A stretch of DNA of 39,553 nt from positions 1-39,553 of the forward strand of contig JAGVZX010000110.1 of NCBI GenBank assembly GCA_018302185.1, in the 5' to 3' direction. The notes below the pieces were generated by a model. That model was not told where the DNA came from and did no database searches. It saw only the letters and a list, made by a program, of their open reading frames with translations. Shown in pieces: positions 10,955 to 32,998 of this stretch. Each line of letters starts with the position of its first letter. Positions within the stretch are counted from its first letter, which is position 1. The position numbers and the translations under genes were made by a program. Source of the stretch: Candidatus Woesearchaeota archaeon. GTDB taxonomy: Archaea; Nanobdellota; Nanobdellia; Woesearchaeales; UBA10200.

Positions 10955-10978
10955 CTTCTATCTTAACTATTCTTTAAA

Positions 10979-15502: not shown

Positions 15503-15633
15503 TGCAGAAATAGATAAGAGAGGCTATTATTTAAAGTTTATGTTTGTTGTAATACTTATTACTACACTAGTTAATATAGCGACGATAAATCACTCGATAG
15601 AAAGCGACAGGTTATAGCGTATCGGGGGCAAAC

Positions 15634-15777
15634 ATGCAGGAATTATATGAAGCAAGAGTTGAGCAGTTTAATGAGAAAGCGCACAAGAAGCAAAAAACAA
15701 ACCTAGATATGAAGATGATCGCTTACGCATGCCTATCATTTGTGGTGCTCTTGCTATTATTATCATTATTTGACTAA
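15634..15777 (+). CDS. Small (47 aa) protein with a C-terminal hydrophobic helix
   Basis: MQELYEARVEQFNEKAHKKQKTNLDMKMIAYACLSFVVLLLLLSLFD. It is ATG-initiated and absent from the ORF track. Confidence 0.3.
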   Translation: MQELYEARVEQFNEKAHKKQKTNLDMKMIAYACLSFVVLLLLLSLFD

Positions 15778-15810
15778 AAATTATTAAATAACCTTCATTT
15801 AACATCATTT

Positions 15811-15954
15811 ATGACAGAATTTGAAGATGCGGAAGCAGAAGAGATGCATGCACATTCAGACCATCACATAGATGCAAGCCCTGAATGGAAGTATTTCAAA
15901 TATGCAGTATATTTTATCATACTTTTAGTTGTGTTATATTATGTTTTGAAGTAA
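15811..15954 (+). CDS. Small (47 aa) protein with a His-rich N-terminus and a C-terminal hydrophobic helix
   Basis: MTEFEDAEAEEMHAHSDHHIDASPEWKYFKYAVYFIILLVVLYYVLK. It has the same length and layout as the preceding mini-ORF and ends 4 nt before the next gene. Confidence 0.3.
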   Translation: MTEFEDAEAEEMHAHSDHHIDASPEWKYFKYAVYFIILLVVLYYVLK

Positions 15955-15958
15955 ACAG

Positions 15959-17494: not shown

Positions 17495-17544
17495 GATATA
17501 AATGTATTAGATAAACCTAATTATAAACTTACGAGGCTCTTGAA

Positions 17545-19044
17545 ATGAACAAAGAACTGATCCAATCATTAGTGAAAAAGGAGTGGTATATACAGGGCAT
17601 TGCAGCAGTTCCTGTCTTTGTTTTTGCGTGCTCGATCTCTGGTATAAAAGCATGCAAAAAAACTCTTGGTTATGGGTATTCTAAGTTTATCTATGACTTC
17701 CAGAAGGATTATCTTGAATTATACTACAGCAGAGAAGACCTTCAATATATGTGTGATGAGTTCATGAAATGGTACAAGAAAGATAAAAATTACTTGAACT
17801 GGCTTGATGAGAAGAGTAATGAGGAAAAAAAGCCATTCTTTGAGTATATGAAAGAGCACCTTAACAGCCTTTCCAGATTAGATGACAACACGCTTCTGGA
17901 GCATTACAAAAAATTCGCAAACATGTTCTATTTTGCTTTTGGCGCATCTCACTTAGTTGAGGGGATCTCACTTACGACTGATGTTGTGTTCAAGGATCTG
18001 CTGCTGAAATCCCTGCAAAAGCTAAGTAAAGCAGACAAGTTCACTCTCTACTTTACTGAGCTGACACAGCCTACACGAAAGATGTTTTTCCCAGAGTTTA
18101 ATAAGAGCATGTCTGATATGGTTGATTATTATAAAAAACATCAAAAACAAAATAACTACAAAGAACCATCACTCGAAGACAAAAAGCTACAAGCAATGGT
18201 TGATGCCCATGTCAAAAGATTTTTCTGGATAAGATCGCAGTGGGACAAGGCAAGAGAATATACTCAGCAAGATGTAATTGATGAGATCAAGGATGCAGTA
18301 GATAAGAACGAGCAGATAACTGTTACAACTGATGCGCAGCTTATGAAGAATCTTTTGCGTAAAAAGAAATTGTTTAAAGAGCTAAACCTAAACCAAGAAT
18401 TGATCGACTTGGTCGAGATCACTGATTTTGTGACTTATTGGCAGGACCAGAGAAAGATAGTTATCTTATCTGGTGTTTATGCTTTCCAGCAGTTTGTCGA
18501 TGAGATAGCCAAGCGTTTTAATGTTGATTCTCGCGACCTCAAATATCTGTTGGCAGATGAAGTTAATCCAGATGATATTGGCTCCATCAAAAACATCAAC
18601 CTCAGAGAAAGAAGGAAGGCAAGCATATTTATCCATTATAAAGATCAGTTAGAAGTATTTACAGGAAATAGATACAAAGAGATCAAAGCCTTGCTTGTAA
18701 AGCAGCATAAGGAAGATGATGTCAAAGAGCTTAATGGAATGTGCGCTTCATTAGGCTGTGTGACTGGCAGAGTTAAAGTCTGTATAAATGCAGCAGAAAT
18801 CTCTAAAGTTGAAAAAGGAGATATACTTGTCACTTCAATGACAAGGCCAGAATTTGTGCCTGCGATGAAAAAAGCAGCTGCAATTATTACAGACGAAGGT
18901 GGCATCACAAGCCATGCTGCAGTGATAAGTAGGGAGTTAAAGATACCATGCATCATCGGCACGAAGAATGCAACCAAGCGCCTCAAAGACGGAGATTTGG
19001 TTATGGTAAATGCAAATCATGGATTGGTAAGGATTCTGAAGTAA
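17545..19044 (+). CDS. PEP-utiliser swivel domain protein, family copy P2
   Basis: GMCASLGCVTGRVKV...GDILVTSMTRPEFVPAMKKAAAIITDEGGITSHAAVISRELKIPCIIGT...VNANHGLVRILK. It lies in tandem 50 nt after P1. Confidence 0.85.
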   Translation: MNKELIQSLVKKEWYIQGIAAVPVFVFACSISGIKACKKTLGYGYSKFIYDFQKDYLELYYSREDLQYMCDEFMKWYKKDKNYLNWLDEKSNEEKKPFFEYMKEHLNSLSRLDDNTLLEHYKKFANMFYFAFGASHLVEGISLTTDVVFKDLLLKSLQKLSKADKFTLYFTELTQPTRKMFFPEFNKSMSDMVDYYKKHQKQNNYKEPSLEDKKLQAMVDAHVKRFFWIRSQWDKAREYTQQDVIDEIKDAVDKNEQITVTTDAQLMKNLLRKKKLFKELNLNQELIDLVEITDFVTYWQDQRKIVILSGVYAFQQFVDEIAKRFNVDSRDLKYLLADEVNPDDIGSIKNINLRERRKASIFIHYKDQLEVFTGNRYKEIKALLVKQHKEDDVKELNGMCASLGCVTGRVKVCINAAEISKVEKGDILVTSMTRPEFVPAMKKAAAIITDEGGITSHAAVISRELKIPCIIGTKNATKRLKDGDLVMVNANHGLVRILK

Positions 19045-19084
19045 TTATAAAAATTTAAATATCTAATTCCAAGAATAATAAAAA

Positions 19085-21256
19085 CTAATGTGTTAGCTGA
19101 ACATATGATTCGGCAATGACTTTAGCAAGATCTTTCATATCAAACGATGCTTTTCTAAAGTTTACTCCAGTACCTCTTAGCTCTTTCATTGATGCCCTAT
19201 CAATTTGATTTACCCTGATCACTAAAGGAGTAACGCCAAAAGCTGCTGCTTCTTGCACAGCAGTAGCCATGTCAGCCCATGCATATCTTCCTTCATATTG
19301 CTGCTCCATATCCCATTTTTTTCTGTTTTCATCTGCAAGAATTTTTGATGTCGGATCAAATAATCGGTCATCATGCGGAGCGCCATCATTAAGATAAATC
19401 AAAAGCTTTATTTCTTCTGGACGAGATGAAAGCAGATATGTACCATGCCTGATTATTGCGCCATCCCTATTTTTGTACTGAGGCTCCAGCTGATTAAGCC
19501 TTTCACGCAGAGTTTCTCTTCCAAGAGAATCATCAAAACCCTTTAGTTTATAGAAAAAAGTAGTTCTTGATTTAATACCATAACCTTTTGAATGCTTACC
19601 TTCAACTTTGCTTGTGACAGCATAGATAGCACACGGATCATTGCAGACATCAAGTCCTACAGCAAAATACATCGTTGCTTCTTTTAATTTATCTAGCACA
19701 GAATGTTCTGGATCTATCAACTCACCTGTTGAATCGCTGACATCTATCAATAATAATGCTGCTACGCTTCGTTCCTCTCTTCTAGGCTCATAACAAAATA
19801 AAGGTCTGACAGGAGTATCTGCTTTGAGTTTGGCTAAAAATCTTGAATACTCCCTTTTATCCATCCTTCTTCCTGGCTTAGGCATTAACTTTCTTTTTAT
19901 TACGAGCCCTTCTGGACTAAGAGAATCAAATTGCGCTTTTATATTTCTCTCAATAGATTCTTCAGGCTCAGAAAAACCAAATACTGGCTGTTCTGGTTTT
20001 GGGATGTCTTTTTCATGTACTATTACATGCTGCTGCATAAACCTGCCTTGAATATAATTCCATTCATGATAACTAGGATCTCCAACTAAAGAAAGTTTTT
20101 TTCTGGTTGCTAATGCTATAGCTGCTTCTCTTTTATATATTACTCCTTTTTCATCCTTCATACTACGTGGATTAGATACATTATTTAAATTATCAAGAAC
20201 ATCTCGTATATTTCTTTCAACATCAGGCACAGATACATTCTGAGCAGGGTCAAGAATTGGCAGCTTGCTATCTAGCATTAGCTCAACTATCCTAAAATAA
20301 AGATCAACTGCTACTCTAACTGAATCATGGATATCTTTTTCAGATTCGAAAATCTTTCTGCTTATATTGAAGAGATCTTCTACAATCGGTTTAACTGCTT
20401 TTTCCCACTGTTCTAGCACAGCCGATCTTGAAGGATTATATTTTACTATATCTGCAAGAGATTTATGCCTTTCGTCTTCTTTTGACTGATATTTTCTGAA
20501 TTCATTGTCAAAATCCATAGACTGAAATAATAAAGAATATTCAAATCTTCGCATCACAAAATCAAATAAATAGGGTGATTGAAGTGTTGGTCTTGCACTG
20601 CATGATCTTTTTATGATATCTTTAGCTAAACAGTCATAAAAATAAGAAAGATTTCTTGAGCACCAGTCATATGAAGCTGGAAAATCCCTAAAAAAATTAC
20701 CCATTATCCTTCCTCTTTCTATAATCCCTATTAAATCACCCATAAGATTAAAGTGAAGAAAATAAGCTGCAAAATTGTATTTATATTTAATAGGTAATTC
20801 AATTTTAGAGAGCTCTGATTTTATTAAATCAAATTTAGGATATACATCTATCAGACCGGGTTCTGTTCCTTCTAATCCAGATAACAAATACGCTTGACAA
20901 TGATGTACCGGATTATGTTTTCCAAATCTTTCTTTGCCTTCTTTATATGCAGCTTTTACTATATCTGCAAGTGTTTTATTATTAAACCCTTTATTATAAC
21001 GAAACTGGGCTGCATTAAGCGCTGCAAGCGCAACATAAGTCATCTTATTATCTTCCCTATCCTCAAACACATTTATTTGCTCAGGAAAATTTGCTATAAT
21101 TGCTTTATCACGATCACGCGCATCACCAATTCCAAGTCCAGTATTGCCGTTGAAAAGAATTTCAATAGGTACTGTTGCTATTGCCCTCATATAAGCTCTA
21201 AGCAAACTATTTACTTCATCTATCCTAACTATTGGAGATTCAACAGCCATGCTCAT
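19085..21256 (-). CDS. NorD/CbbO/CobT-type von Willebrand factor A protein
   Basis: The C-terminal vWA has an intact MIDAS DVSDS (19730-19744). RDGAIIRHG, LLIYLNDGAPHD and YEGRYAWADMATAVQEAAAFG are family hallmarks. The YHEWNY motif lies upstream of the vWA. It is the last gene of the operon, 17 nt after the AAA+ gene. Confidence 0.8.
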   Translation of the reverse strand: MSMAVESPIVRIDEVNSLLRAYMRAIATVPIEILFNGNTGLGIGDARDRDKAIIANFPEQINVFEDREDNKMTYVALAALNAAQFRYNKGFNNKTLADIVKAAYKEGKERFGKHNPVHHCQAYLLSGLEGTEPGLIDVYPKFDLIKSELSKIELPIKYKYNFAAYFLHFNLMGDLIGIIERGRIMGNFFRDFPASYDWCSRNLSYFYDCLAKDIIKRSCSARPTLQSPYLFDFVMRRFEYSLLFQSMDFDNEFRKYQSKEDERHKSLADIVKYNPSRSAVLEQWEKAVKPIVEDLFNISRKIFESEKDIHDSVRVAVDLYFRIVELMLDSKLPILDPAQNVSVPDVERNIRDVLDNLNNVSNPRSMKDEKGVIYKREAAIALATRKKLSLVGDPSYHEWNYIQGRFMQQHVIVHEKDIPKPEQPVFGFSEPEESIERNIKAQFDSLSPEGLVIKRKLMPKPGRRMDKREYSRFLAKLKADTPVRPLFCYEPRREERSVAALLLIDVSDSTGELIDPEHSVLDKLKEATMYFAVGLDVCNDPCAIYAVTSKVEGKHSKGYGIKSRTTFFYKLKGFDDSLGRETLRERLNQLEPQYKNRDGAIIRHGTYLLSSRPEEIKLLIYLNDGAPHDDRLFDPTSKILADENRKKWDMEQQYEGRYAWADMATAVQEAAAFGVTPLVIRVNQIDRASMKELRGTGVNFRKASFDMKDLAKVIAESYVQLTH

Positions 21257-21273
21257 TTATCTCATCCCCTAAA

Positions 21274-22086
21274 TCATCCCCTAACATTTGTTTTTATTAA
21301 TTTATCTACAGCTTCAATTACAGTCTGATCATGCGATAGAACAACACTAATACATGCATGACAAGCTTCATAAGAGGGAGTACCTGAAACGATTTGCTGC
21401 GCTGCTTTAATTAAAGAATGATATCCAATCGATTCTTTTAGGCTTCCAGCATATTCTTGTGACCTATGCAGCTCATCTATAGTTTTAGCAAGCATATCCA
21501 ACTGCCTTGCCAATTTTAAGTCAATACCGCTTTCATTAACAATAATATCTACGCCTTGCTCACCCCTTACATAACTGAATTCTATGCCGACAAATCTTTG
21601 CGCTAAGCTTGGCTTTGGAAATCTTCTTGCTGCTTTTTGATAAGCTGCTCCTGGATTCATAGAGACAATAAACATAAAATCTTTGCCAGGCCTGATCACT
21701 TCGCCTATCTCTCCAACATGAAGTTCCCTTCTCCAATCTGCTAATGTATGGCATAACGGCAAAACATCTTCATTCATCTCTAATATCTCTTCTAAATGAG
21801 TATATGCTTGAATTTTTGCACCGATATACAATGGCCCTGGAATAAAAACACTTTCATATCCAGGAATTGTAATGCATGGCATTCCGTGCTGATATGCCAT
21901 AAAATCAACAAATCTAGATTTACCAGAGCCTGTTGGCCCTAACAGCATTACTGACTGTCCATTTTTCTTAGCATTCTCAAATATCTGCACTTCATTGCCA
22001 ACTGGATGATAAAATGGTTTTTTCTGTACTTTAAATTGCTCAACATATTTTGAGATATCTTTTTCATCAAATTCAATTTTTATCAT
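21274..22086 (-). CDS. CbbQ/NorQ/NirQ-type (MoxR-class) AAA+ ATPase
   Basis: PFYHPVGNEVQIFENAKKNGQSVMLLGPTGSGKSRFVDFMA carries Walker A at 21916-21939. SMNPG (sensor 1 context), LAQRF and the 270-aa length match the family. Walker B reads THLEE (21787-21798). Confidence 0.85.
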   Translation of the reverse strand: MIKIEFDEKDISKYVEQFKVQKKPFYHPVGNEVQIFENAKKNGQSVMLLGPTGSGKSRFVDFMAYQHGMPCITIPGYESVFIPGPLYIGAKIQAYTHLEEILEMNEDVLPLCHTLADWRRELHVGEIGEVIRPGKDFMFIVSMNPGAAYQKAARRFPKPSLAQRFVGIEFSYVRGEQGVDIIVNESGIDLKLARQLDMLAKTIDELHRSQEYAGSLKESIGYHSLIKAAQQIVSGTPSYEACHACISVVLSHDQTVIEAVDKLIKTNVRG

Positions 22087-22966
22087 TTGCGTTCACCATC
22101 TCATTCGCAACATCTTCGATTAGCAATGATTTAGCAACTTGCTGGACATAGAATTGGTCTGCACGGCCTTCTCTTGTAGTTAAGATTTTTTCAAGACCTA
22201 GCTTCATAGCTTTTTCAGCAGTCTCTTGTTGTTCAGCTCTCTTCTCACTAGCGCGCCTTCTTTCTTTCTTCTCTTGTTCAGGAGATAACTTAAAAAGCGC
22301 ATAAGTCTGATTAACAGACTCTTCCAGATGTATTCTTGGAATTTGCTCTTCAACAACAACAGCAACAATGCCTGGCCTTGGCAAGCCTGTCAACTTATCA
22401 TGAGGGACCTTTACCTCTAATCCAGAATGAATATATTCAAATTGATTATAGCTTGTTCCAGTAGGCTTTTTATCATAGATCACAATTCTCAATAGGTAGC
22501 CTATCTTAATTTCTTCTTTAGGCATTTCTTTTGTCTTGTCATCAAGAGGAAAAGTTATCGGCTCCTGTACTCCTGCAACTATACGTGCTCTAGATACATA
22601 ATCATCAACTTTATCTCTACCGTATATATGGCAAGCCTGGCTTATTGCAACTCTTGCATTATTAAATTTAGGATGATTTGGGTCTGCAGTATTATCTAGC
22701 AATACCTGGATCTGAGCAACTTTGTATAAGATAACTTCTTCATGTGAATCATATAATTCATCTGGGCTTCTTTCATCAAAATTATCAAGCTGACCAGAAT
22801 TTGGCGGCAAAATTCTTGAACCTGATTCAGTTAAATATCTTTTTTTTGCATCAGCTAATTCCTCTAACTTAAAGTTAATGCTGTAACTGGCTTCTGCTAT
22901 ATTCATTTTTTCTGTTTTAGGTTTTTCTTTCATTCTCTTCACCAATCCTATTTTTAAAAATTTCAC
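22073..22966 (-). CDS. Orphan protein (297 aa) in the AAA+/vWA operon
   Basis: The long ORF overlaps the AAA+ start by 14 nt. The track start is a GTG at 22966, with ATG alternatives at 22933 and 22906. It has a charged C-terminal helix (EQEKKERRRASEKRAEQQETAEKAMK). No family recognised. Confidence 0.7.
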   Translation of the reverse strand: MKFLKIGLVKRMKEKPKTEKMNIAEASYSINFKLEELADAKKRYLTESGSRILPPNSGQLDNFDERSPDELYDSHEEVILYKVAQIQVLLDNTADPNHPKFNNARVAISQACHIYGRDKVDDYVSRARIVAGVQEPITFPLDDKTKEMPKEEIKIGYLLRIVIYDKKPTGTSYNQFEYIHSGLEVKVPHDKLTGLPRPGIVAVVVEEQIPRIHLEESVNQTYALFKLSPEQEKKERRRASEKRAEQQETAEKAMKLGLEKILTTREGRADQFYVQQVAKSLLIEDVANEMVNANDKN

Positions 22967-22981
22967 CTCGTTAACATAATT

Positions 22982-24262
22982 TTAAGATTTCATTGTATTT
23001 TCAAGCTGAACTCTTCGTCTTCTTGCCAACTGAAACAAATAAGATGTAAATCTCTCTGCTGCAACAGCATCATGAGTTATAGCTGAGAAATGAGAATATC
23101 TGTGTTCGACTTCCTTGAGTGGCATCTGCACCAATAGATTATATGCTGTCCTGTAAGCTAGCCTTGCTCCATATTGAATGGCAGGATCATCATATTCTCC
23201 TTCAAGAGAATCCTCTCTAATCGGCAAGTACTCAGGCTGCTTTCTGCAGATATTCTTGGCATAGCTTTCAAAAAGATCAACAAACTTCAGGCTGATTGCC
23301 AGGCACATTCCGTTTTCTTTTTTGTTGTCTAGATCTTTTCTTAGGGCAATCCTTAGTTCATCAGGCGTTATAGGAAGATGCGGATCTGCAAAATGGATTA
23401 TTTTTTTTATTAGCTGTGCGTCCAAAGTTCCTCTTGTTGCTTTCAGCCATTTACTGCCTATTCTTTCACCTAATTCACTAATATATCCTAAAACATTATA
23501 GGTTGAATACGCTTTTTTTAATATCGGCAGGAAAATGCTTTCAGCATCTTCTGTATAGAGCCTTTGTTCGCGCTCAAGCCTCTTAAACTGCTGCAGGTAA
23601 TACTTCTCCTCATCTACCATCGCAGGTCTGCACTCATCATCCTCGCAAAATAATCTTGGGAATATTGCAGATGCATTGCCAGCGTTAACATAAGATCCGC
23701 TATCTTCTTTATCCTCCTCACTCAGGCACTCATTAAGTTTTTGTACAAGAAAGATATCAAATCCTATAGCTGTTCTAGAGCAGTCTAATCTGCTGCTTAA
23801 CTCTCTAACAAGATTGTCATTTTCTTTATCCTCTTCTTCACGCTCTTTCTGCCTATACTCTACTGCAAGAGTGACAAGGTCATCAATGCTATGCACTCCT
23901 ATTCTCGTTAATGGATTATAATCAAGAGGCTCAATATTGCGAATAGGCACTCCTTTCTCATAAATCAGCTGATTGACAAACCATATTGATGCTGCGTGCT
24001 CAGCAAGCATATCATTAACAACATTGTCATTAAGATGGGCTTTTAGCTTTTCATTAACATATTCGATCAGTTCAGTGTACTGCAATCTTTGATAGGCATG
24101 CTCTGCAGTGTGCAATCTCTTTTTAATCTCCATGTACCTAGCAAACCTTCTTGCCTGTACTGGATTTTCCCTAGCTAACTTCTCCAAAAATTCTTCGCTT
24201 CTTTTATTAGGTGCAAAAATTTCCATCTTACAGTACCCTTCCCTACATATGCCTATAGCCAT
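22982..24262 (-). CDS. Orphan protein (426 aa), first gene of the AAA+/vWA operon
   Basis: The long ORF is divergent from the Lrp regulator. It has an acidic central linker (REEEDKENDN, SEEDKEDSGS). No family recognised. Confidence 0.7.
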   Translation of the reverse strand: MAIGICREGYCKMEIFAPNKRSEEFLEKLARENPVQARRFARYMEIKKRLHTAEHAYQRLQYTELIEYVNEKLKAHLNDNVVNDMLAEHAASIWFVNQLIYEKGVPIRNIEPLDYNPLTRIGVHSIDDLVTLAVEYRQKEREEEDKENDNLVRELSSRLDCSRTAIGFDIFLVQKLNECLSEEDKEDSGSYVNAGNASAIFPRLFCEDDECRPAMVDEEKYYLQQFKRLEREQRLYTEDAESIFLPILKKAYSTYNVLGYISELGERIGSKWLKATRGTLDAQLIKKIIHFADPHLPITPDELRIALRKDLDNKKENGMCLAISLKFVDLFESYAKNICRKQPEYLPIREDSLEGEYDDPAIQYGARLAYRTAYNLLVQMPLKEVEHRYSHFSAITHDAVAAERFTSYLFQLARRRRVQLENTMKS

Positions 24263-24325
24263 ACGCCTTAACAGTAGATAGAATATTTAGAATTAATTAG
24301 TAATTTTTCTAAAAAACCCGTAAAA

Positions 24326-24335
24326 TTTATAAATA
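24326..24335 (+). promoter_or_regulatory. TATA-box-like element for the tandem-Lrp gene
   Basis: tttataaata lies 21-30 nt upstream of the ATG at 24356. Confidence 0.45.
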
Positions 24336-24355
24336 AACCTAGTTTATTATGCACT

Positions 24356-25474
24356 ATGGGTGAAAAAAATAAAGAATTGATAGATTCAGTAAGATCACCA
24401 GGCCAGATAATTGCGCCTAAGCAGCCTAAAACTGTCAAATTAGACATTATAGACAGGAGAATAATCTACGTGTTATTGGTAAATTCGCGGCTTAGCGCAA
24501 CAAAGATCGCTAAGCTTCTTGGCATCCCAAAAGAAAAAGTGATGTACAGGATAAATAGGCTTGTTGAAGAAAAAGTGATTGTAGAGTTTTATACAGCTAT
24601 TAACACAACAAGGCTTGGATATGATCTTTTTATGCTCAATATTAGCTTAAAAAACACAAGCCAGCAGGAATTAAAGAACTTAGTTGTTGAAATGCAGAAG
24701 ATGCACTATGTTAATTGGGTTATGACTTCTTTTGGAAGCTGGGATCTCATGACAATGATCCAGGCAAAAGGGCTAGGGCATCTGGACAAAATATTAGATG
24801 AAGTATTCACTTGCATAGGAAGCAAATTAAGGGATTATAGTATCTTCTCGATTGTAGATTTCCAGCACACAACCCCGCGCTATCTTACGCTTGACATCAA
24901 AATGCCTCAAATAAAACTTATCGGGAAAAGAGATTTTTCGTATTTTAAGGAGCTAGAAGAAAGAAATGCCAAAGAGGCAAGCCAAAAGATAAGCCTTGAT
25001 AACATAGATGTTGAGCTGTTGAATTCAATTGCATCTAACTCCAGAAAATCATTAAAAGAGATCGGAGAAGAAATTGGAATATCAAGTGATGCAGCTAATT
25101 ACAGGCTTAGAAAATTAATAATGCAAGATCTCATAACAGGATTCAAGGTGCGCCTAAATCATTATTTATTCGGCTATCAGTTTCAGTTCGTGTTCGTAAA
25201 AATCCCTTACATGTCTGATGATAAAAAAAAGCAATTTGTTTATTTCTGTAAAAACCATCATCTAATAAATGCAGTGTTCAAGCTCATAGGCCAGTGGAAC
25301 TTTGCATTTGAGGTTTTCAGCAAGGATGTAATGGAGCTAAAGATGTTTGAAGCAGAGCTAACTGAACTCTTTGGCGACATAATCCAGAACATAACGCTGT
25401 CCTTGGAGTTCAACCAGTACAAGTTTACTTATCTTGGAGAGGGAATTTATACTGACTTAAAAAAGAGTGTCTAG
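24356..25474 (+). CDS. Tandem (double) Lrp/AsnC-family transcriptional regulator
   Basis: Two HTH_AsnC-like units are present: IDRRIIYVLLVNSRLSATKIAKLLGIPKEKVMYRINRLVEEKVI and IDVELLNSIASNSRKSLKEIGEEIGISSDAANYRLRKLIMQDLI. Each is followed by a RAM-like segment. Confidence 0.8.
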   Translation: MGEKNKELIDSVRSPGQIIAPKQPKTVKLDIIDRRIIYVLLVNSRLSATKIAKLLGIPKEKVMYRINRLVEEKVIVEFYTAINTTRLGYDLFMLNISLKNTSQQELKNLVVEMQKMHYVNWVMTSFGSWDLMTMIQAKGLGHLDKILDEVFTCIGSKLRDYSIFSIVDFQHTTPRYLTLDIKMPQIKLIGKRDFSYFKELEERNAKEASQKISLDNIDVELLNSIASNSRKSLKEIGEEIGISSDAANYRLRKLIMQDLITGFKVRLNHYLFGYQFQFVFVKIPYMSDDKKKQFVYFCKNHHLINAVFKLIGQWNFAFEVFSKDVMELKMFEAELTELFGDIIQNITLSLEFNQYKFTYLGEGIYTDLKKSV

Positions 25475-25558
25475 CATATTAGCTTTTATCTATTTATGTT
25501 CGTCAAAATTTGGCAGTTGCTGAAACTTTTGTCGTTATATCTAAACAAATCTTTTTAT

Positions 25559-28459
25559 CTATTTGTTCCCAAATCTAGTATCAACTACTCTAGTCAAGTC
25601 AATGCCTTCTCTTTTGCGCTCTTCAATGTATTTTTTTACATCTATCTTGTAGGCTGTCCTGACTCCACTTAATGGTCCAACTCCCATGTCAAACACTGCT
25701 TTCTCAATGCCCTCATCTAGCTCATCATGTGGAGAATTAACTCCGGTATATCTGATGCTGCTATCAAACCTAGGCTTTGCAGTCTGGATAGACCAGTATT
25801 GCTCTCCAGCTCCAAACTGCTCTTGGACCAGCTCATTGTCCCCTTCAATCTGCTCAAACACAAAATCACCATGTGTCATTGAGGTATTTGCCTTATTTGT
25901 TAGCAGCTTTTCTAACAATTCTGTCTTGAATTTTCTTGGGGCATTTCCTCTGCCTCCCTGGTATCTAACAAGTATATGCTCAGCTTTATCATATCCTTCA
26001 TCGCCATTATAAATTATTCTACCATCTTTGTGCTTAACAGGCATTCCATTCTCATCCCTTACTCTCAGGTCAATATCATCTATCATCAAATATTCTGCAT
26101 TTACTTGGTGAGCACTTTTCACTAATGTATCAAGTACATACCTAAATGTGCCTTTTTCACCAAGTGCAGCCATAAGCGCATGATTTGCCTCATAAGGGCT
26201 TATTGCAAGCACTGCATTTTTGCCTTCTGACCTGCCTAACTTTAATATTGAAAATCCCATCGGCGAATCTAATCCTTGTATAAAATGCTCAAGGTATAAC
26301 CCAGATGGATTGTATATGCTCTTAAAGGTTATTCCCTGTTTTTCTCCGCCTAAACTTGCGCAGCACATCATAAAGCTGCTGCTGTGAAAATCTTGGACAA
26401 CTGCACGATGCCAAGCCCTGGTATAAACGCTTCCTCCTACAAGCGCGCCATTAAATCTTAATTGGGTCTCTAAAAGCTCTAGTTTAGTGGCTAATTCAAC
26501 TATTGGTACATCTAACTTGCTCTTGTTTTGGGCCCATCTCAGATTTTCAACTATGGTGCAGTATGCTTTTAATTCTTCAACAAGATCAAAGGCTTTCTCT
26601 ATGCCTAATGTCTCAGCACTGTATCTGCTTATCCTCTCTTTTACTACCTTTCCAACATTAATCGGCTTTCCAATGTCCTTTGCAGCTCTAGCTACTCTAG
26701 CATCTTCATCAGTTACTAAATTTCCAATTCCGCCTGTTTCTTGAAAATGTTGAATTCTAGAGTTATGTATCTCAAGTTCAAGCTGCTTTCTGCCTTCATC
26801 AGATTCCAAGAGAGTCTCATCTATCGACATCAAGACCTTTCCAATAGCCTGGCCCCTATAAAGAGCATCTTTTGTCTCATCGCCTAAAATTGGCGCAGCT
26901 CCAGGAGCTTTAGGAGGCATGCTCACAGGCTTTAGCAAGTCAAATAATGCATTATATTTCTCTCCTCTAATGTCAGCAAGGATATCATTTAATGTTGTTA
27001 TCCAGGATACAGCATCACCATTGCTTCTTGTGTTAATGTCATATGTTGATTGGTTAGCTAGCAACAGTTGTGTATTAAATCCTAATCTGCTTATATTTGA
27101 CATAAGCTCTTGCGCTTTCTGAATATGCACAGGTGTCTTTTCTTGGCCAATACTTGGTGGTTCAAGGTAAGAGCGAAAAGTTCCATAGTCAAAAGCAATT
27201 CCTAAAATCCTGTTTAGCCCAGAAGAGTTTCTTTGTGCAACAGGAATCTCTTGCATCTCGCTAAGAGTCCGAAACATGCCTATAGGCGAATACCCTGCGC
27301 CAATAAGGATATTTAGGATTGCAGGATTCAATGGCTTAAGGCGTGCGCTTCCGCACTGGTCCGCTAGATAAGCCAGCTTATCATACAACAGCCAATGTAA
27401 TCCTTTCTTAGGGTTATCAATAATATTACCTAATATGATCTCAGACAATGGAACATTTTTTCTAAGCTCCTGCTTAACTAACAAAGCTCCAACATGCACC
27501 CAATCTAGTTGAGAATATATGTTGCGCTTAGAAGATGGCAGCTCCATAACTCTACAAACATAGTCAAAAAATACTCTTGTATTTGCAGGAGATGCCTGCA
27601 GCTCATACACTGCTTCTATGATATCTTTTAATTGGGCTTCTACTTTCTGGTCTCCTTTTAATTTCTTAGCTTGTCTTCTATCTTCTGCAGCTTGATCAAA
27701 CATGTTAAGAATAACTTCGGCTGGCACTTCTATCCCTGTAGCTTGTCTTAAACTCGTTTCATAAGTTGGAATTGCAGCAGCGTCAAAATGCCTAAACGGG
27801 TCTCTGACCATATTCCTATTTAATAATCCACGTGACTCTTTGGCAAATTCTTCATACTTAAATAAAGGTTCTAATTTTGCTAGAAGTAAGTATTGGTAAA
27901 AACTTTGATTTAAAATATCTCTAAGGTCTTTTATCTGCTTTACTTTCTGGAAGTCAACTGCTGTTCTTAAGATAGCCTCACCTCTAAGCTGGATTGCTGT
28001 TTCTTCATCTGCGCCAGAGCTTGTTATTGCTCTGTGGATTCCAGACAACTCATCAAATTCCCTACTTTGGTTTTGTCCAAAATACTTAGCAGCCTCTTCC
28101 CATTCACCATCTCGCACTTCTAAATCAGATATAGGGATTAAGCCTGCTTTAATGTAATCACCTACTATCTCTTTAAAAAAATCATAATGCTCATACTCCA
28201 TTTTATCAACATCTGTCTCTAAAAGCAAAGTTACTAGAGCTGGCTTATCTTCGCTAGCAACTACTCTTAAATCTAAATAAGTGCCTGAATCTAAAACAGT
28301 TTCTTGCGTATGGCCATCTTCATTACTAACAGTAATAACTGCACCGCTAGAAAATTGGCCTGATCTCTTCCCACCAAGAGAAAAGTCACGAAATACTTTT
28401 CTAAGAGTTTCCTCTAGATTAAACCCTTGCTCAGCTTTAAAATGTGCAAATAATACCAT
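25559..28459 (-). CDS. Orphan large protein (966 aa)
   Basis: An uninterrupted 2.9-kb ORF whose antisense ORFs are all short. A TATA-like box sits about 30 nt upstream of its ATG. No P-loop, TM segment or family motif recognised. Confidence 0.8.
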   Translation of the reverse strand: MVLFAHFKAEQGFNLEETLRKVFRDFSLGGKRSGQFSSGAVITVSNEDGHTQETVLDSGTYLDLRVVASEDKPALVTLLLETDVDKMEYEHYDFFKEIVGDYIKAGLIPISDLEVRDGEWEEAAKYFGQNQSREFDELSGIHRAITSSGADEETAIQLRGEAILRTAVDFQKVKQIKDLRDILNQSFYQYLLLAKLEPLFKYEEFAKESRGLLNRNMVRDPFRHFDAAAIPTYETSLRQATGIEVPAEVILNMFDQAAEDRRQAKKLKGDQKVEAQLKDIIEAVYELQASPANTRVFFDYVCRVMELPSSKRNIYSQLDWVHVGALLVKQELRKNVPLSEIILGNIIDNPKKGLHWLLYDKLAYLADQCGSARLKPLNPAILNILIGAGYSPIGMFRTLSEMQEIPVAQRNSSGLNRILGIAFDYGTFRSYLEPPSIGQEKTPVHIQKAQELMSNISRLGFNTQLLLANQSTYDINTRSNGDAVSWITTLNDILADIRGEKYNALFDLLKPVSMPPKAPGAAPILGDETKDALYRGQAIGKVLMSIDETLLESDEGRKQLELEIHNSRIQHFQETGGIGNLVTDEDARVARAAKDIGKPINVGKVVKERISRYSAETLGIEKAFDLVEELKAYCTIVENLRWAQNKSKLDVPIVELATKLELLETQLRFNGALVGGSVYTRAWHRAVVQDFHSSSFMMCCASLGGEKQGITFKSIYNPSGLYLEHFIQGLDSPMGFSILKLGRSEGKNAVLAISPYEANHALMAALGEKGTFRYVLDTLVKSAHQVNAEYLMIDDIDLRVRDENGMPVKHKDGRIIYNGDEGYDKAEHILVRYQGGRGNAPRKFKTELLEKLLTNKANTSMTHGDFVFEQIEGDNELVQEQFGAGEQYWSIQTAKPRFDSSIRYTGVNSPHDELDEGIEKAVFDMGVGPLSGVRTAYKIDVKKYIEERKREGIDLTRVVDTRFGNK

Positions 28460-28485
28460 TTTATCCTCAAAAAAAACCTCTGTCG

Positions 28486-28493
28486 TATTTAAA
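28486..28493 (-). promoter_or_regulatory. TATA-box-like element for the 966-aa gene
   Basis: tatttaaa on the plus strand (tttaaata on the coding strand) lies 27-34 nt upstream of the ATG at 28459. Confidence 0.4.
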
Positions 28494-28727
28494 TTTTCCT
28501 ATATTTTACTATCCTTAAGTAATAACTTATTTAACACCAATTTTTTCAGAAACTAAACACCTTATCTAGGAATATTTTATGAATAAGAGCTAATATTATT
28601 AGTGTTATTTATATCTAACTTCTTATTTTTATAAAAAAGACGTAAAAATATAATAAATAATATGGTTTTTTTATAAATAAATAGGTAAAAAATAGAATAT
28701 AAGAAAAGCAGAAAACTCAAGAAAAGG

Positions 28728-28822
28728 TGTATCATCAGCACAAAGATCCTCACCAAAGTGCTTAAAGACGGAGATTTGTCATGGTAAATGCAAATCATGG
28801 CATTGTGAAGATATTGAAGTAA
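28728..28822 (+). pseudogene. Relic 3' end of a PEP-utiliser swivel domain gene (closest to P2)
   Basis: It reads CIISTKILTKVLKDGDL, then has a 1-nt deletion, then MVNANHGIVKILK and a stop. The corresponding P2 sequence at 18949-19044 is CIIGTKNATKRLKDGDLVMVNANHGLVRILK and a stop. A core of about 38 nt is almost identical. No upstream coding sequence remains, only an AT-rich tract. Confidence 0.8.
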
Positions 28823-28844
28823 TAATATTATTCTCTGAGAATAA

Positions 28845-29174
28845 CTAATTATTTACAACTATCACTTTTTTCTTTGTGGCACTTACCATCGCTTGCCTAA
28901 TCAAAGTTGCTTCCAGCTCTAAAATTTTCTTAACAACAGGGCTTTCTGCATTTAATGTGTAAAGCCTTGTCTTGCCAAACCTTCTTGTTTCTCTTACTAA
29001 TCCGTTTTTTTCCAATTGCTCCCAATAATTAAATACAGATGCTCTGGAGATTTCAGCGCCTTTTTCTATATCGGTTTTTGTAAAATCTAATCCTTTATTC
29101 TCTACAAGAAAATCTATGATTTTAAATAAGGGCATTTCTCCGGTTAATTGCAATAATAATGATTTGTCTTTCAT
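28845..29174 (-). CDS. Winged-helix DNA-binding protein (paralog of 32550-32894)
   Basis: LFKIIDFLVENKGLDFTKTDIEKGAEISRASVFNYWEQLEKNGLVRETRRFGKTRLYTLN has an HTH-plus-wing pattern. I prefer the ATG at 29174. A TATA-like gatttatatac lies about 30 nt upstream. Confidence 0.7.
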   Translation of the reverse strand: MKDKSLLLQLTGEMPLFKIIDFLVENKGLDFTKTDIEKGAEISRASVFNYWEQLEKNGLVRETRRFGKTRLYTLNAESPVVKKILELEATLIRQAMVSATKKKVIVVNN

Positions 29175-29285
29175 ACATTGAGAAAATATAGAAAAGTATA
29201 TAAATCTTACGGTCAAAGTACATCTATATAGACTTTAGAAAATTTAACTTTTTGAGGATTGTTAAGAAGAGAGGATGTTTAGGCA

Positions 29286-29552
29286 ATGTGGACAGATGAT
29301 GAGATTAAAGGCAAAATATTGCATAAGTTAACTCGTTTTGGGAAATTTGATGCTAGCCATACTGCTATTGAGCATCTGCAAAAGGGATTTCCTAAAGATA
29401 TGGTCGGTAGAGTTAAAGATTTAATAAGAGAATTAAAGAAAGAAAATATACTATTTATCAAGCATACTAGTTATGGTGAGCAAGTTTCAATAAATCTAGA
29501 TGTAATAGATAAAGTTATGTTTTATATTGATGTTTTTTTAAAGAAGCCATAG
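29286..29552 (+). CDS. Small conserved hypothetical protein (88 aa; paralog of 32999-33268)
   Basis: It shares the pattern G..H(T).....HL.KG.P......V.....EL.K..IL..K.T.GEQ.S(L/I)N with the 33-kb copy. It is divergent from the wHTH gene. Confidence 0.6.
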   Translation: MWTDDEIKGKILHKLTRFGKFDASHTAIEHLQKGFPKDMVGRVKDLIRELKKENILFIKHTSYGEQVSINLDVIDKVMFYIDVFLKKP

Positions 29553-29617
29553 TTACATTATATTTTGATGAAGGTGAGACAATTACTTACGTCGAATATA
29601 TCCGCGAATACATCTCT

Positions 29618-31051
29618 GTGCATATTGGATGGATGATCTGCGATGGGATGAGAAAGTACGACAGAGAATTGATAGGTAGACCTTTCACAAGAACATTATA
29701 TTCTGCAGAGCCTAAAAATAACTTTTCCTTATGGTGCTGGTGGCAGGATGATCTTACTAAGATGGGAAAATATCTTGTTGATAATTCAAGAAATAATGAT
29801 TGGCTTTCTAGTCATGTTGCTCTACATAAGAAAGTTGCAGGAGAGGCACAGGCAATAGCTGCAAAAATAAAGCAGCTAAATCTTTTAGAGTTGTCTGACA
29901 ACCAGCTTTCTTTCCTGTATGCTGACTTGATGATAAAAGCAGAACGCTTCAACGCTCTTTCCATGGAGATAGATGCTTTGGACTTGGTGCTTGAAGAAGA
30001 ATTAAAGAAAGCCATCTCATCTACGTTTGCTGCAAAAAGAGAGCAGAATGAAGCATATACGATAATAACAACGCCATCTGAGCTTAGCGCTCCTAAAAAA
30101 GAAGAGCTTATGTTCTACAGGCTTGCACTTACTCTAAAAGAGACAAAAAAGTATGATGATAAATTAATCAACAGCATACTCTCAGATTTCTGGTGGACAG
30201 AGCTTAATTGGCGCGCAGGCGATGGAAAAACTTTGCAGACAATAAAAAAGGGAATTGATAATATCCTTAAAGAGGCAAAAGACATACCCAAACATATCAG
30301 AAAGCTGGAAAATTATTCTGATGAGATAGTTGGATTAAAAAAGAAATATCTCAAAAATCCAGAGCTTAATGTTCTGAATAATATCTTTGAAGAATATGCT
30401 CTTCTGCATGAGCTCAGAAAAGAGACACAGATGAAGGCAACTTTTAGCCTTTATCTTATTTTTGAGGAAATCTCAAAACGCTTTGGCATTTCAGTAAATG
30501 ATCTTGAAGTATATTCTCCAGATGAATTAATATTGCTATTGGAGAAAGAAAGAAAAATATCAGACGAAGAGATTGCAAATAGATTGCAATGCTCAACTCT
30601 GTTTATCAATGAGAATGGTTGTGTTGGTAATAAGAATGATCATGACAATAACAGCGTGTTGTTTAAGTCAGGTGAAGATGCAATCAAACTAAAAGCATCT
30701 GAGCAGAGCAAAGAAAGTGATGCAATAAGGGATTTCTCTGGATTGCCTGCTTCTTTGGGAAAAGCAGTCGGCAGAGTGAAGATTGCTTTAAGTGCAGCAG
30801 AAGCACTAAAGAAGATCGAGAAGGGCGATATTCTAGTAACTGGAATGACAATGCCTGACTTTGTTCCAGCGATGAAAAAAGCTGCAGCAATCATCACAAA
30901 CGAAGGTGGCGCTACTTGCCATGCTGCAATAATCTCTAGAGAGTTTAATATTCCATGTATTGTCGGCACTAAGATTGCAACTAAAATTCTGAAAGATGGG
31001 ATGATGGTGGAAGTGAATGCCAATCATGGAGTGGTTAAGATAATAAAATGA
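29618..31051 (+). CDS. PEP-utiliser swivel domain protein, family copy P3
   Basis: GLPASLGKAVGRVKI...GDILVTGMTMPDFVPAMKKAAAIITNEGGATCHAAIISREFNIPCIVGT...VNANHGVVKIIK. The start is GTG. The N-terminus is shorter than in P1, P2 and P4. Confidence 0.8.
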   Translation: MHIGWMICDGMRKYDRELIGRPFTRTLYSAEPKNNFSLWCWWQDDLTKMGKYLVDNSRNNDWLSSHVALHKKVAGEAQAIAAKIKQLNLLELSDNQLSFLYADLMIKAERFNALSMEIDALDLVLEEELKKAISSTFAAKREQNEAYTIITTPSELSAPKKEELMFYRLALTLKETKKYDDKLINSILSDFWWTELNWRAGDGKTLQTIKKGIDNILKEAKDIPKHIRKLENYSDEIVGLKKKYLKNPELNVLNNIFEEYALLHELRKETQMKATFSLYLIFEEISKRFGISVNDLEVYSPDELILLLEKERKISDEEIANRLQCSTLFINENGCVGNKNDHDNNSVLFKSGEDAIKLKASEQSKESDAIRDFSGLPASLGKAVGRVKIALSAAEALKKIEKGDILVTGMTMPDFVPAMKKAAAIITNEGGATCHAAIISREFNIPCIVGTKIATKILKDGMMVEVNANHGVVKIIK

Positions 31052-32535
31052 GCACAAACAACCTAAAAAAACTGATCCAGTCAAAAGAATGGTACTATCA
31101 AGGCGCAGAAGCCAGGCCTTTGTACATAAATATTCCGCTCAGGTCTTCAGTTGACAGCGAGGATCCTGGAAAAAAAGACAAGTATTCTCTGATAATCCTG
31201 CATTTCAGCAATGATTTCTGCGACATATATTATGATAAGTTTGGCATGAAGAGAATAACAGATGGCATCTTGTTGCAGCAGGAAAAAGATAACAAGACAA
31301 TTGATAATCTCTATGGTTCATGCATCAAGGTGATGGATAACTTTATCGGAAATGAAATGAAGTTCATGTCAGTAGATCCTAAAAAGCTGTCAGACAAAGC
31401 TCTCGTATCTAAATTAAATGAAGTATGCACTGCAGCAAAGCATGTTTGGGATCATGTGCTGTTCATTGATGCATTTGATATAATAAGCGATAAAATCATA
31501 AGTTCATCTTTTGACAGCTATAATAATAGCCATAATTTTGCAGGCAGCAAGATCACGAATAAGGAAATAGAGATACTCACTCTTCCTGATGAGCTTGCAT
31601 TCACGCAGCGAGAAAGATTATCTTTGCTTAAGATCGCAGCAGCTGCAAAAGAAGGCAAAAATATTGAAAAGGCTATTGCAGAACATCAGCAGCAGTTTTT
31701 CTGGTATAAGAGCAATTACTCTGTCATTGAGATTCTCGACGAGAGTTATTTCATGCAAAAGCTTGATGCAGTGTTAAAGAATGAATCTGCTGAGCAGATC
31801 AAAAAAGATATCATGTCGTTTGAATCATATGAGAAAAGAATAAAGCAGCAGAAAGAGGATATCTCTAAGAAACACAATCTAAACAGCAGCCTGAAAGAGA
31901 CCATCTATTTTTTTACCAGGCTGACTCTGCTCCGTGACCATAGGAAAGAATGGGTGCTAAAGTCGCATGTCCTGATCAAGCATCTTGCAGCTGAGATATC
32001 AAAGCGCGCAAAAATACCTCTCCATGAGCTTGAATACCTATCTTACTGGGAGATCGAGAGCATTGCTCAATTAAAGAAGATGAAAAATCTGAATGAAAGG
32101 ATTAAAGATTCTGCCTGGGTTGCAGATGAGAGTTATGGATATGCAGGGCATTTTGGGAAAGAAGCTGTGCAGATAAATGGCTTTCTGCAGAAAAGGATAG
32201 TCACAGAAATAAATGCCTTGCAGGGCGTAGCTGCGTCATCTGGCTATGCAAAAGGAAATGTTAAGATAATTAATCGGGTGCAGGAATTCTCAAAGATGCA
32301 GAAAGGCGATATATTAGTATCTTCAAACACAAGGCCAGAGTATGTGCCTATAATGAAATTAGCTGCAGCAATAATCACAGACGAAGGAGGCATCACTTGC
32401 CATGCTGCAATTGTCTCTAGAGAATTAAAGATACCTTGCATTGTAGGAACACAGGCAGCGACTAAAGTCCTGAAAGATGGCATGGTAGTTGAGGTAGATG
32501 CTGAGAAGGGCGTTGTAAAGATAGTTAAAGAATAA
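31048..32535 (+). CDS. PEP-utiliser swivel domain protein, family copy P4
   Basis: GVAASSGYAKGNVKI...GDILVSSNTRPEYVPIMKLAAAIITDEGGITCHAAIVSRELKIPCIVGT...VDAEKGVVKIVKE. It has an ATGA start/stop overlap with P3. Confidence 0.85.
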   Translation: MSTNNLKKLIQSKEWYYQGAEARPLYINIPLRSSVDSEDPGKKDKYSLIILHFSNDFCDIYYDKFGMKRITDGILLQQEKDNKTIDNLYGSCIKVMDNFIGNEMKFMSVDPKKLSDKALVSKLNEVCTAAKHVWDHVLFIDAFDIISDKIISSSFDSYNNSHNFAGSKITNKEIEILTLPDELAFTQRERLSLLKIAAAAKEGKNIEKAIAEHQQQFFWYKSNYSVIEILDESYFMQKLDAVLKNESAEQIKKDIMSFESYEKRIKQQKEDISKKHNLNSSLKETIYFFTRLTLLRDHRKEWVLKSHVLIKHLAAEISKRAKIPLHELEYLSYWEIESIAQLKKMKNLNERIKDSAWVADESYGYAGHFGKEAVQINGFLQKRIVTEINALQGVAASSGYAKGNVKIINRVQEFSKMQKGDILVSSNTRPEYVPIMKLAAAIITDEGGITCHAAIVSRELKIPCIVGTQAATKVLKDGMVVEVDAEKGVVKIVKE

Positions 32536-32549
32536 AATCATATTGAGGC

Positions 32550-32894
32550 TCATTGTACTAGAACTTTCTTTTTGAGCTTTTCTTCTTGAAAATCAACATT
32601 TATTATCCTATCAAACAGATCTACTAAAATCTTTACATAAGAATTATTAACATTAAGCTTATACAATTTAGCATTGCCTATATCTCTTGTATGCGTAATT
32701 ATTTGTGCCTTTCCCATCTCATTCCACATCCTGAACAATGTTACTCTGTTGATGCCTGCGCCTTCTGCAATATCACCTATTGAATGGTCTAATTCGCGCC
32801 CTTCCAATAAGTATTCTAAGACTCTTATCTTAGGTGTGTCTCCAAATAACGTTCTGAATAATGTTTTTTCATCATGGAAATTCATGTTTATCAC
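32550..32894 (-). CDS. Winged-helix DNA-binding protein (paralog of 28845-29174)
   Basis: PKIRVLEYLLEGRELDHSIGDIAEGAGINRVTLFRMWNEMGKAQIITHTRDIGNAKLYKLN has the same layout as the 29-kb copy. Confidence 0.7.
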   Translation of the reverse strand: MINMNFHDEKTLFRTLFGDTPKIRVLEYLLEGRELDHSIGDIAEGAGINRVTLFRMWNEMGKAQIITHTRDIGNAKLYKLNVNNSYVKILVDLFDRIINVDFQEEKLKKKVLVQ

Positions 32895-32998
32895 TTATGC
32901 TATAAAGTATAACTACTATTTAAATGTTTCTATTATGCAATACATATATTACATTTGTGCAACATATCTTTAAATATTTAATCCGTCTTCTTCACCAT

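Follow-up and report, generated by a model that had tools for sequence, protein, structure and literature searches.

The stretch of DNA analyzed here (39,553 nucleotides (nt) of contig JAGVZX010000110.1 from a Candidatus Woesearchaeota archaeon; hereafter, the window) contains a 17-kb block at positions 15503-32894, in which genes for phosphohistidine swivel-domain proteins lie on both sides of an AAA+/vWA operon. We found that this block is probably, at a likelihood of roughly 0.7, a composite: an array of RPH-like dikinase large-subunit genes (P1-P5) that has been cut by an inserted and unrelated NorQ/NorD-type island of ~9.8 kb. The backbone would be formed by the co-oriented tandem paralogues P1 (15959-17494), P2 (17545-19044), P3 (29618-31051) and P4 (31048-32535, overlapping P3 by 4 nt) and a frameshifted P5 (38196-39553), all on the + strand, and the island occupies positions 19023-28780, with no strand assigned. 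In the proposed course of events, a circular element would have integrated into the P2 3' end, its own tail restoring the reading frame, and the original P2 tail would have been displaced to the far end of the island as a relic. The two gene sets would then be neighbors because an element had inserted at a variable position of the array, and not because they share a pathway. If the AAA+/vWA operon is such a passenger, its adjacency to the array on one contig is misleading and no phosphorylation-remodeling pathway should be inferred from it. Gene calls and places were checked by listing the open reading frames (ORFs) of the window and by family scans, which recovered every element listed in a preliminary description of the block in the same order, places and orientations. 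The names attached to the closest homologues point to a Woesearchaeota-like DPANN archaeon as the source. The two pairs of swivel-domain genes named there do share the + orientation, but they are not separate pairs; they belong to one array with P5 as a fifth copy.

The island was absent from the three closest relatives found (L002, L003 and L004; L001 is another assembly of the window's strain). The P2 orthologues of these relatives were 94% (L002), 86% (L004) and 81% (L003) identical to the window protein. L002 and L003 retained the SerRS, Cdc6, TrmB, mini-ORF, P1 and P2 genes, and L004, the contig of which ends inside P1, retained P1 and P2. After P2, P3 was present in all three, and the hexapeptide transferase, Fic and further P genes were present in L002 and L004. 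No tblastn matches in L002, L003 or L004 were obtained for the six genes of 19085-28459, which encode a 723-aa vWA protein (vWA723), a 270-aa AAA+ ATPase (AAA270), a 297-aa protein (h297), a 426-aa protein (h426), a double AsnC/Lrp regulator (Lrp2) and a 966-aa protein (o966). The array genes themselves were clearly conserved, with identities of 79-90% for P1 in L002-L004 and of 84% (L002), 79% (L003) and 58% (L004) for P3. The P4 orthologue of L003 was 72.5% identical and was placed between P1 and P2, so the order of the array varies.

The boundaries of the island were marked by a duplicated gene end. The blastn synteny with L002, L003 and L004 broke at the P2 stop codon (19044) and restarted at 28706, at the beginning of a 118-nt frameshifted P2-type 3' end (the attR-like relic, 28706-28822, + strand). 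An identical 20-nt core was found within the P2 3' end (19003-19022, + strand; repeat D1, the attL-like left copy) and in the relic (28781-28800), at a spacing of 9,778 nt. The island therefore combines the two features of a genomic island, namely present/absent polymorphism and target-derived flanking direct repeats. The relic carries a 1-nt deletion. Its identity was 82-84% with the P2 ends of the three relatives L002, L003 and L004, compared with 76% with the window's own P2 end. In particular, the 22-nt tail 3' of the core matched the orthologues at 18-21 of 22 positions in the relic and at 14-15 of 22 in the resident P2. The last ~40 nt of P2, past the att-like core, thus look island-derived. 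We also found that the four related strains carry four different cargoes 3' of P2: a 145-aa gene and a nucleotidyltransferase gene in L002, a Fic gene and a 174-aa gene in L003, two small ORFs in L004 and the island in the window. The site is variable whatever the direction of the event, and the accessory hotspot that the preliminary description had offered as its alternative is what the relatives bear out. At the level of the block, the result is an ordinary one, an island in a variable array.

The array and the AAA+/vWA module did not co-occur in any of the other loci compared. A family survey in which one genome per species was scanned returned 79 loci, many of them ordinary PEP (phosphoenolpyruvate) synthases matched through the swivel domain only. 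Together with loci fetched via individual homologues and with the window, it provided 38 distinct loci with a P-type acceptor domain (605 kb). Upon searching these loci by phmmer (E<=1e-3) with AAA270, vWA723, h297, h426 and o966, we found homologues in 0 of the 37 other P-family loci (about 565 kb), the window alone being positive. Likewise, the Pfam-annotated array contexts L085, L087 and L089 contained no AAA_5, CbbQ_C or VWA genes. In the reverse direction, the closest relatives of AAA270 (48-54% identical) occupied three distinct contexts (L091/L092, L093 and L094-L096). A vWA723 homologue of 738-796 aa always lay 3' of the AAA+ gene in L091, L093 and L094 (E 3e-93 to 1e-142), an h297 homologue accompanied the AAA+ gene in each of the three contexts, and the neighbors included MazEF, AbiEii and TrmB genes. 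None of these three other AAA+/vWA/h297 loci contained a P-family, swivel or ATP-grasp gene. At its core, the island thus carries three genes (297 aa, AAA+ and vWA) that form a self-contained module of accessory regions in DPANN-like genomes. The preliminary description had named the lack of conserved linkage in any other genome as the outcome that would speak against its proposal, and this was the outcome of the synteny comparison. An additional observation concerns the sample ERZ27254745, the source of the island-free L002, which also holds the AAA+/vWA module on another contig (L095) beside AbiEii; this finding is consistent with a module that is mobile within the community.

We then compared the architectures of the P proteins. 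P1-P4 are paralogues with overall identities of 27-39% (36% between P1 and P2). PF00391 was found at the C-terminus of all four co-oriented genes' products, with E-values of 1e-25 to 1e-27 (P1, residues 435-505, 9e-27; P3, 1.6e-25; P4, 4.5e-26), and this swivel (PEP-utilisers) domain comprises the last ~110 residues. All four proteins (4/4) contain the motif T(D/N)EGGxT(C/S)H, which is TDEGGITSH in P2 and conforms to the T/SxxGGxxxH pattern of the large subunit of two-component dikinases. The catalytic His457 was invariant across an alignment of 55 homologues, as were R303 and K304 of the acceptor domain. An AlphaFold2 (AF2) model of P2 built on this 55-sequence alignment had a pLDDT of 92 and a pTM of 0.90. 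When the model was searched with Foldseek against the PDB, the best six matches were all Listeria RPH-Lm (5fbu and 5hv1 being the best), with E-values of 1e-13 to 5e-11 over 455-582 columns; the top match aligned over about 480 columns (E 1e-13). The model matched PPDK, pyruvate kinase and Enzyme I through the swivel domain only. The NCBIfam RPH, PigC and RedH models covered the swivel domain plus ~90-190 preceding residues, reaching back to residue ~236-305. As evident from the P2 model and the reach of these hidden Markov models, a RIF-BD-type helical acceptor-binding domain lies N-terminal to the swivel domain. Pfam and NCBIfam scans revealed neither an ATP-grasp (PPDK_N) domain nor a PEP-binding domain in the P1-P4 chains. 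In sum, P1-P4 consist of the acceptor-binding and swivel parts of RPH and lack its N-terminal ATP-grasp part.

On this domain content, P1-P4 are most likely the large subunits of two-component small-molecule dikinases. The predicted chemistry is the conversion of ATP and an acceptor to AMP, Pi and a phospho-acceptor via phospho-His: a separate ATP-grasp subunit, encoded outside the window, would load the ATP beta-phosphate onto the conserved His, and the swivel domain would pass the phosphate on to the acceptor that the divergent N-terminal domain binds. Identity among P1-P4 was 16-29% in the acceptor domains and 56-64% in the swivel domains. Because the acceptor domains are divergent and the swivel domains are conserved, P1-P4 are probably charged by one common partner but act on different substrates. 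The leading substrate candidates fall into two groups, sugars or glycans on the one hand and xenobiotics or antibiotics on the other. PADLOC and PHROGs scans of the P and island proteins returned nothing useful. A fusion with UDP-GlcNAc 2-epimerase, considered for P2 and three fused ORFs, was rejected; the matches were short, without an independently significant stretch, and covered positions ~227-283 of the 347-position model. Those in P2 and in the L019 protein fell within the swivel domain and were not taken as fusions.

In the two-component RPH homologues HpeHI, CreHI and PpsAB, the ATP-grasp domain is on the separate HpeI, CreI and PpsB proteins (PMC12167813). P1-P4 resemble HpeH, CreH and PpsA in that an RPH-type substrate-binding domain is joined to a C-terminal His swivel on a chain that has no ATP-grasp domain; in contrast, the P proteins are ~55 kDa compared with ~71 kDa, their genes occur as 5 to ~8 diversified tandem copies and not as one H/I pair, the window has no adjacent partner gene, and the hosts are DPANN archaea and candidate phyla radiation (CPR) bacteria and not aromatic-degrading bacteria. 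The NCBIfam PRK08296 models (about 570-630 positions, product 'hypothetical protein'), which may represent the PpsA/HpeH family, matched the P proteins in the swivel region only. With respect to RPH-Lm (5FBS/5FBT/5FBU/5HV1), the best structural matches of the P2 model spanned both the acceptor and swivel domains, and within the RPH/PigC/RedH/HapC clade the NCBIfam RPH, PigC and RedH models aligned with the C-terminal 190-260 residues of the P proteins. However, in the RPH domain scheme (PMC4844700) a single chain includes an N-terminal ATP-grasp (residues 1-314) that is absent from P1-P4, and the P scores were far below every equivalog cut-off (68.8 bits for P2, the top of the four, compared with 1700), at identities of 14-16%. 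Among RPH homologues, the acceptor domain diverges fast and the swivel domain is conserved, which has been interpreted as conserved chemistry with diverging substrates (PMC4844700). We rejected an identity of P1-P4 as PEP synthase or Enzyme I of the phosphotransferase system because the required domains were missing. The P swivel is up to ~60% identical to that of an archaeal PEP synthase (8a8e, E 1e-32), but over ~100 residues only; the PPDK_N ATP-grasp and the PEP/pyruvate-binding TIM-barrel domain of PEP synthase, PPDK and Enzyme I are lacking. PEP synthase models covered ~110 of ~790 positions in P1-P4 and scored 120-139 bits against cut-offs of 598-740.

The wider P family provided the link to ATP-grasp charging. 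At least 3,063 proteins matched the family at E<=1e-5, a count that includes PEP synthase-type, swivel-only matches. Two or more P copies were present in 18 of the 38 loci. Up to 8-9 ORF segments per locus, nearly all on one strand, matched the acceptor-domain profile, some of them being pieces of frameshifted genes. Large arrays of up to ~8 co-oriented genes were found in L005 (Woesearchaeota), L006 (Nealsonbacteria), L007, L008 (Falkowbacteria), L012 (Buchananbacteria) and others, so that the hosts of P arrays comprise DPANN archaea and CPR bacteria. Several loci contained fused ORFs in which a single N-terminal PPDK_N domain was followed by 2 (L015 8639-12337, 1,233 aa), 3 (L020 5291-9520, 1,410 aa), 4 (L029 6929-12919, 1,997 aa) or 8 (L019 452-11755, 3,768 aa) swivel domains, with acceptor-type domains between successive swivel domains. 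Additionally, stand-alone ATP-grasp genes of ~317 aa adjoined P genes in L007, L010, L012, L032 and L087. Altogether, an ATP-grasp domain, stand-alone or fused, was present in 11 of the 38 loci. These fusions and adjacent genes tie the P family to ATP-grasp charging and suggest that several modules can be served by a single charging domain. At the end of the L089 array (13524-14912), we also observed a 462-aa ATP-grasp and swivel fusion without an acceptor domain, whose role may be confined to charging or relay.

Several observations weigh against the composite reading and lend themselves to other explanations. According to one of these, the swivel proteins and the AAA+/vWA remodeler cooperate within one neighborhood, for example through phosphorylation of a NorQ/NorD-like client. 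Their physical adjacency in the window and in L001 is compatible with this idea, as is the occurrence of TrmB-family regulators near both module types: in 2 of the 3 other loci with the AAA+/vWA module, a relative of the window's TrmB is encoded only a few kb away from it (L091 16282-17004, E 1e-24; L093 48-752, E 5e-34). TrmB is the only gene family found near both and may simply abound in these genomes. Furthermore, a double AsnC-type regulator at L085 14329-15345, with 27% identity to Lrp2 over 336 aa, is located midway through another Woesearchaeota P array beside a radical SAM gene, and the reverse co-occurrence test comprised three independent loci only. A loose regulatory association of array and module thus keeps a small share of the probability. 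The functional link between phosphohistidine carriers and remodeler, as envisaged in the preliminary description, is nevertheless very improbable. The genomic linkage is unique to the window's strain and is missing in three relatives, in 37 other P loci and in three other AAA+/vWA loci; a duplicated gene end marks the limits of the island; and RPH-type modules phosphorylate small molecules, which their own acceptor domain binds, and not protein clients (PMC4844700, PMC12167813).

The direction of the event is less firmly supported than the presence of the island. No integrase or recombinase was found among the island proteins by family matches in Pfam, NCBIfam, PHROGs and PADLOC. The comparison of composition suggested in the preliminary description did not set 19-29 kb apart from the rest of the window: the GC content of the island was 0.365, equal to 0.365 for 1-15500, and its tetranucleotide r was 0.969 (against the window without the island), within the range of 0.952-0.977 for 5-kb windows (each against the rest). 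In the arm upstream of the core, the relic matched at 52-55 of 70 positions and the window's own P2 at 52-59 of 70, so the relic is not clearly more foreign there than the resident sequence. Insertion as the direction thus has modest support, mainly from 22 nt and parsimony, and we therefore kept as a minor rival an ancestral island that the relatives have lost through recombination of the P2-end repeats, the array and island still being functionally independent. The 118-nt direct repeats can mediate deletion, and the host-like composition and the lack of an integrase would suit this scenario. We consider it unlikely, however: L002, L003 and L004, at different distances, all lack the island and carry different cargo, which would require three losses and replacements; the relatives of the module occur in unrelated contexts; and the tail of the relic is the orthologue-like one, as integration predicts. 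The remaining alternative concerns the P proteins themselves, which might not be charged by ATP-grasp and might instead act as stand-alone phosphotransferases between small molecules, serve in phospho-relay or sensing, or bind ligands without being active. The 39.5-kb window contained no ATP-grasp gene, and none was found within 10 kb of the arrays of L002-L006 and L008, so a charging partner in the source genome is inferred. Moreover, HpeH alone moves phosphate between two phenolic substrates (PMC12167813), and some homologues (P0015 and P0019) are fused to winged helix-turn-helix (wHTH) domains, hinting at regulatory variants. This alternative also appears improbable in view of the one-ATP-grasp fusions with 2-8 modules, the stand-alone ATP-grasp genes that adjoin in 5 loci, and the invariant catalytic His and acceptor-domain R-K pair.

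Under the composite reading, the array is part of a large expansion of RPH-like dikinase modules that extends through DPANN and CPR genomes, in the form of arrays or one-ATP-grasp polyproteins, and has so far gone unstudied. We tentatively propose, at somewhat less than even confidence, that one ATP-grasp domain in these organisms charges a battery of diversified modules, either in trans (arrays such as P1-P5) or in cis (polyproteins of up to 8 modules, as in L019), forming a multi-substrate dikinase for scavenged or hostile small molecules, with the O-acetyltransferase and Fic proteins as further modification enzymes of the locus. Should the P proteins be multi-specificity small-molecule kinases, they would bear on host-metabolite processing or antibiotic resistance in genome-reduced symbionts and on how many carriers one charging domain can serve. 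Full-text literature searches revealed no account of tandem arrays, one-ATP-grasp polyproteins or one-to-many swivel-dikinase charging, and one paper gives no more than counts of rph-like genes in CPR genomes (PMC8651080). The organization into diversified tandem arrays and one-ATP-grasp, many-module polyproteins in DPANN and CPR appears to be new.

The island operon on the - strand consists of h426 (22982-24262, the first gene), h297 (22073-22966), AAA270 (21274-22086) and vWA723 (19085-21256, the last gene). AAA270 contains AAA_5 and CbbQ_C domains (PF07728 and PF08406), the combination that defines the CbbQ/NorQ type, and matched CbbQ (PDB 6l1q, E 1.7e-35) and NorQ (9qhd_A, E 2e-28). Its Walker A motif is GPTGSGKS, and its Walker B motif is the variant HLEE. 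We observed that an archaeal CbbQ/NorQ-like clade (AAA270 and P0139-P0141) has H-(L/M/A)-E-E at the Walker B position instead of hhhhDE. AAA270 also lacks 17 residues that follow GYESV in its three nearest homologues. The HLEE Walker B motif and the 17-aa deletion make the activity of AAA270 uncertain, and the copy in the window may be impaired, judging from these sequence features. The adjacent vWA723 matched NorD (PDB 9qhd_G, E 4.8e-19) over residues 390-630 and is thus NorD/CbbO-like; it contains a DVSDS MIDAS-like motif, and its Pfam VWA match was sub-threshold (E 0.14). A word-prefiltered homologue search with vWA723 returned only the protein itself, which reflects a limit of the prefilter, as homologues do sit beside the AAA270 relatives.

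CbbQ-CbbO is a Rubisco activase and NorQ-NorD matures nitric oxide reductase, so that the known pairs remodel or mature a specific client. The island resembles these pairs in that a ~270-aa AAA_5/CbbQ_C gene lies directly 5' of a gene for a large protein with a C-terminal NorD-like vWA domain. In contrast, no Rubisco or NorCB client gene was found in the window, L091, L093 or L094; the conserved partner is an uncharacterized 297-aa protein, and the module sits in accessory regions with toxin-antitoxin or Abi genes. The third conserved member of the module, h297, had no Pfam, NCBIfam, PADLOC or PHROG match, and its phmmer matches lie beside the AAA+/vWA pair in L091 (E 1e-22), L093 (2e-14) and L094 (4e-13). 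This conserved protein is the leading candidate to be the client or an adaptor of the pair. The island is thus an example of a rare archaeal module of the CbbQ/NorQ-NorD type that has no known client and in which the conserved 297-aa partner is new. By comparison, h426 had no family match (Pfam, NCBIfam, PADLOC and PHROGs) and no detectable relatives; the proteins encoded at its position in L091, L093 and L094 form a related group of their own that shows no detectable similarity to h426, even by profile.

The double AsnC/Lrp regulator Lrp2 (24356-25474, + strand) contains two HTH_AsnC stretches (E 2e-19). It diverges from the island operon across a 93-nt gap and probably regulates it. A double-AsnC regulator was present in 3 of the 38 P-family loci. 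The adjoining o966 gene (25559-28459, - strand), at the right island end, encodes a member of a very rare family. The preliminary description had called it an orphan; we found 5 relatives at E<1e-30 among 1.84 billion representatives using HMMER, none of them with a Pfam domain. The family shares a conserved ~330-aa C-terminal domain, and the AF2 model of o966 was poor (pLDDT 49). Scans of viral contigs with o966 were empty, and together with the PHROGs and PADLOC scans of the island proteins they provided no evidence for a viral origin or a known defense system. In the cluster L084 9097-18235, a 796-aa homologue was observed between NrtR (Nudix-wHTH) and an operon that encodes NAPRTase, NAD synthase and Nudix/NMNAT. 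This single context hints at an NAD-related role of the family, from which we draw no conclusion.

The conserved partners of the array are the double hexapeptide O-acetyltransferase, Fic, TrmB and, elsewhere, the stand-alone ATP-grasp gene. At the head of the array, the TrmB-family regulator (14789-15502, - strand; PF01978, E 2e-17) belongs to the backbone and not to the island, as its syntenic orthologues in L002 and L003 were 96% and 94% identical although both lack the island. A TrmB-like regulator occurred near P genes in 7 of the 38 loci. The preliminary description had counted five regulators in the block; we found four HTH regulator genes, one of which, Lrp2, itself has two HTH domains. 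Its suggestion of a separate regulator for each part is plausible: TrmB is retained together with the array, Lrp2 diverges from the operon, and each wHTH gene diverges from a small ORF that is followed by an enzyme gene. Two 47-aa ORFs follow TrmB on the + strand. The first, mini1 (15634-15777), has a hydrophobic C-terminal transmembrane tail and is only partly conserved (33 aa at 88% in L002). The second, mini2 (15811-15954), encodes a tail-anchored protein, ends 4 nt 5' of P1 and is probably co-transcribed with P1-P2. The mini2 protein was 100% identical in L002 and 85% in L003, compared with ~89% identity to L002 in the flanking DNA, which points to purifying selection and thus to a real gene.

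Downstream of the relic, a 123-aa wHTH regulator (28845-29216, - strand) precedes an 88-aa protein gene located 5' of P3 (29286-29552, + strand), and a 114-aa wHTH regulator (32550-32894, - strand), identified by family scan and paralogy, follows P4. The two wHTH proteins were 32% identical (E 6e-19). Their L004 orthologues were 93% identical and in the same place (28845-29216) and 84% identical (32550-32894), and that of the 88-aa protein was 90% identical. The 88-aa protein is a distant paralogue of the 114-aa product of 32924-33268 (BLASTP 25% over 73 aa, E 1e-5). A cassette was therefore observed twice (28845-29552 and 32550-33268), in which a - strand wHTH gene diverges from a small + strand ORF followed by one or more enzyme genes. 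Beyond the 15503-32894 block, the double hexapeptide (LbH) O-acetyltransferase (33273-34679, + strand) matched the NCBIfam WcaF, Maa, CatB, Vat and heptaprenylglyceryl-phosphate O-acetyltransferase models in 3 stretches. Its homologues lie beside P arrays in 7 of 38 loci, among them L005 14483-15589, L085 19829-20932, L087 8895-10004 and L089 6338-7708, and it is the most consistently kept non-kinase neighbor. The combination of array and O-acetyltransferase suggests a shared locus for small-molecule or glycan modification. A Fic-domain protein (35755-36768, + strand; PF02661, E 3e-20) is encoded further downstream, and Fic homologues were found in 6 of 38 P-family loci. P5, the fifth P-family gene, is frameshifted near 39026 and runs off the window end. 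In a tblastn comparison with its 522-aa L002 orthologue, it was 83% identical in frame 3 and then 79% identical in frame 2.

Two features upstream of the array were also observed. The SerRS gene (10979-12262) has an in-frame TGA at 11735-11737, where L001 reads TCA, and three substitutions lie within 41 nt; an error in the assembly or consensus could account for this codon, as could variation among strains in an essential gene. The neighboring gene for a 390-aa protein (12318-13490) had no family matches and is absent from L003; its product was 68.5% identical to the L002 orthologue, compared with 97% for the neighboring SerRS. Since this gene adjoins a Cdc6/Orc1 gene (13779-14792), the array may sit near a replication origin.

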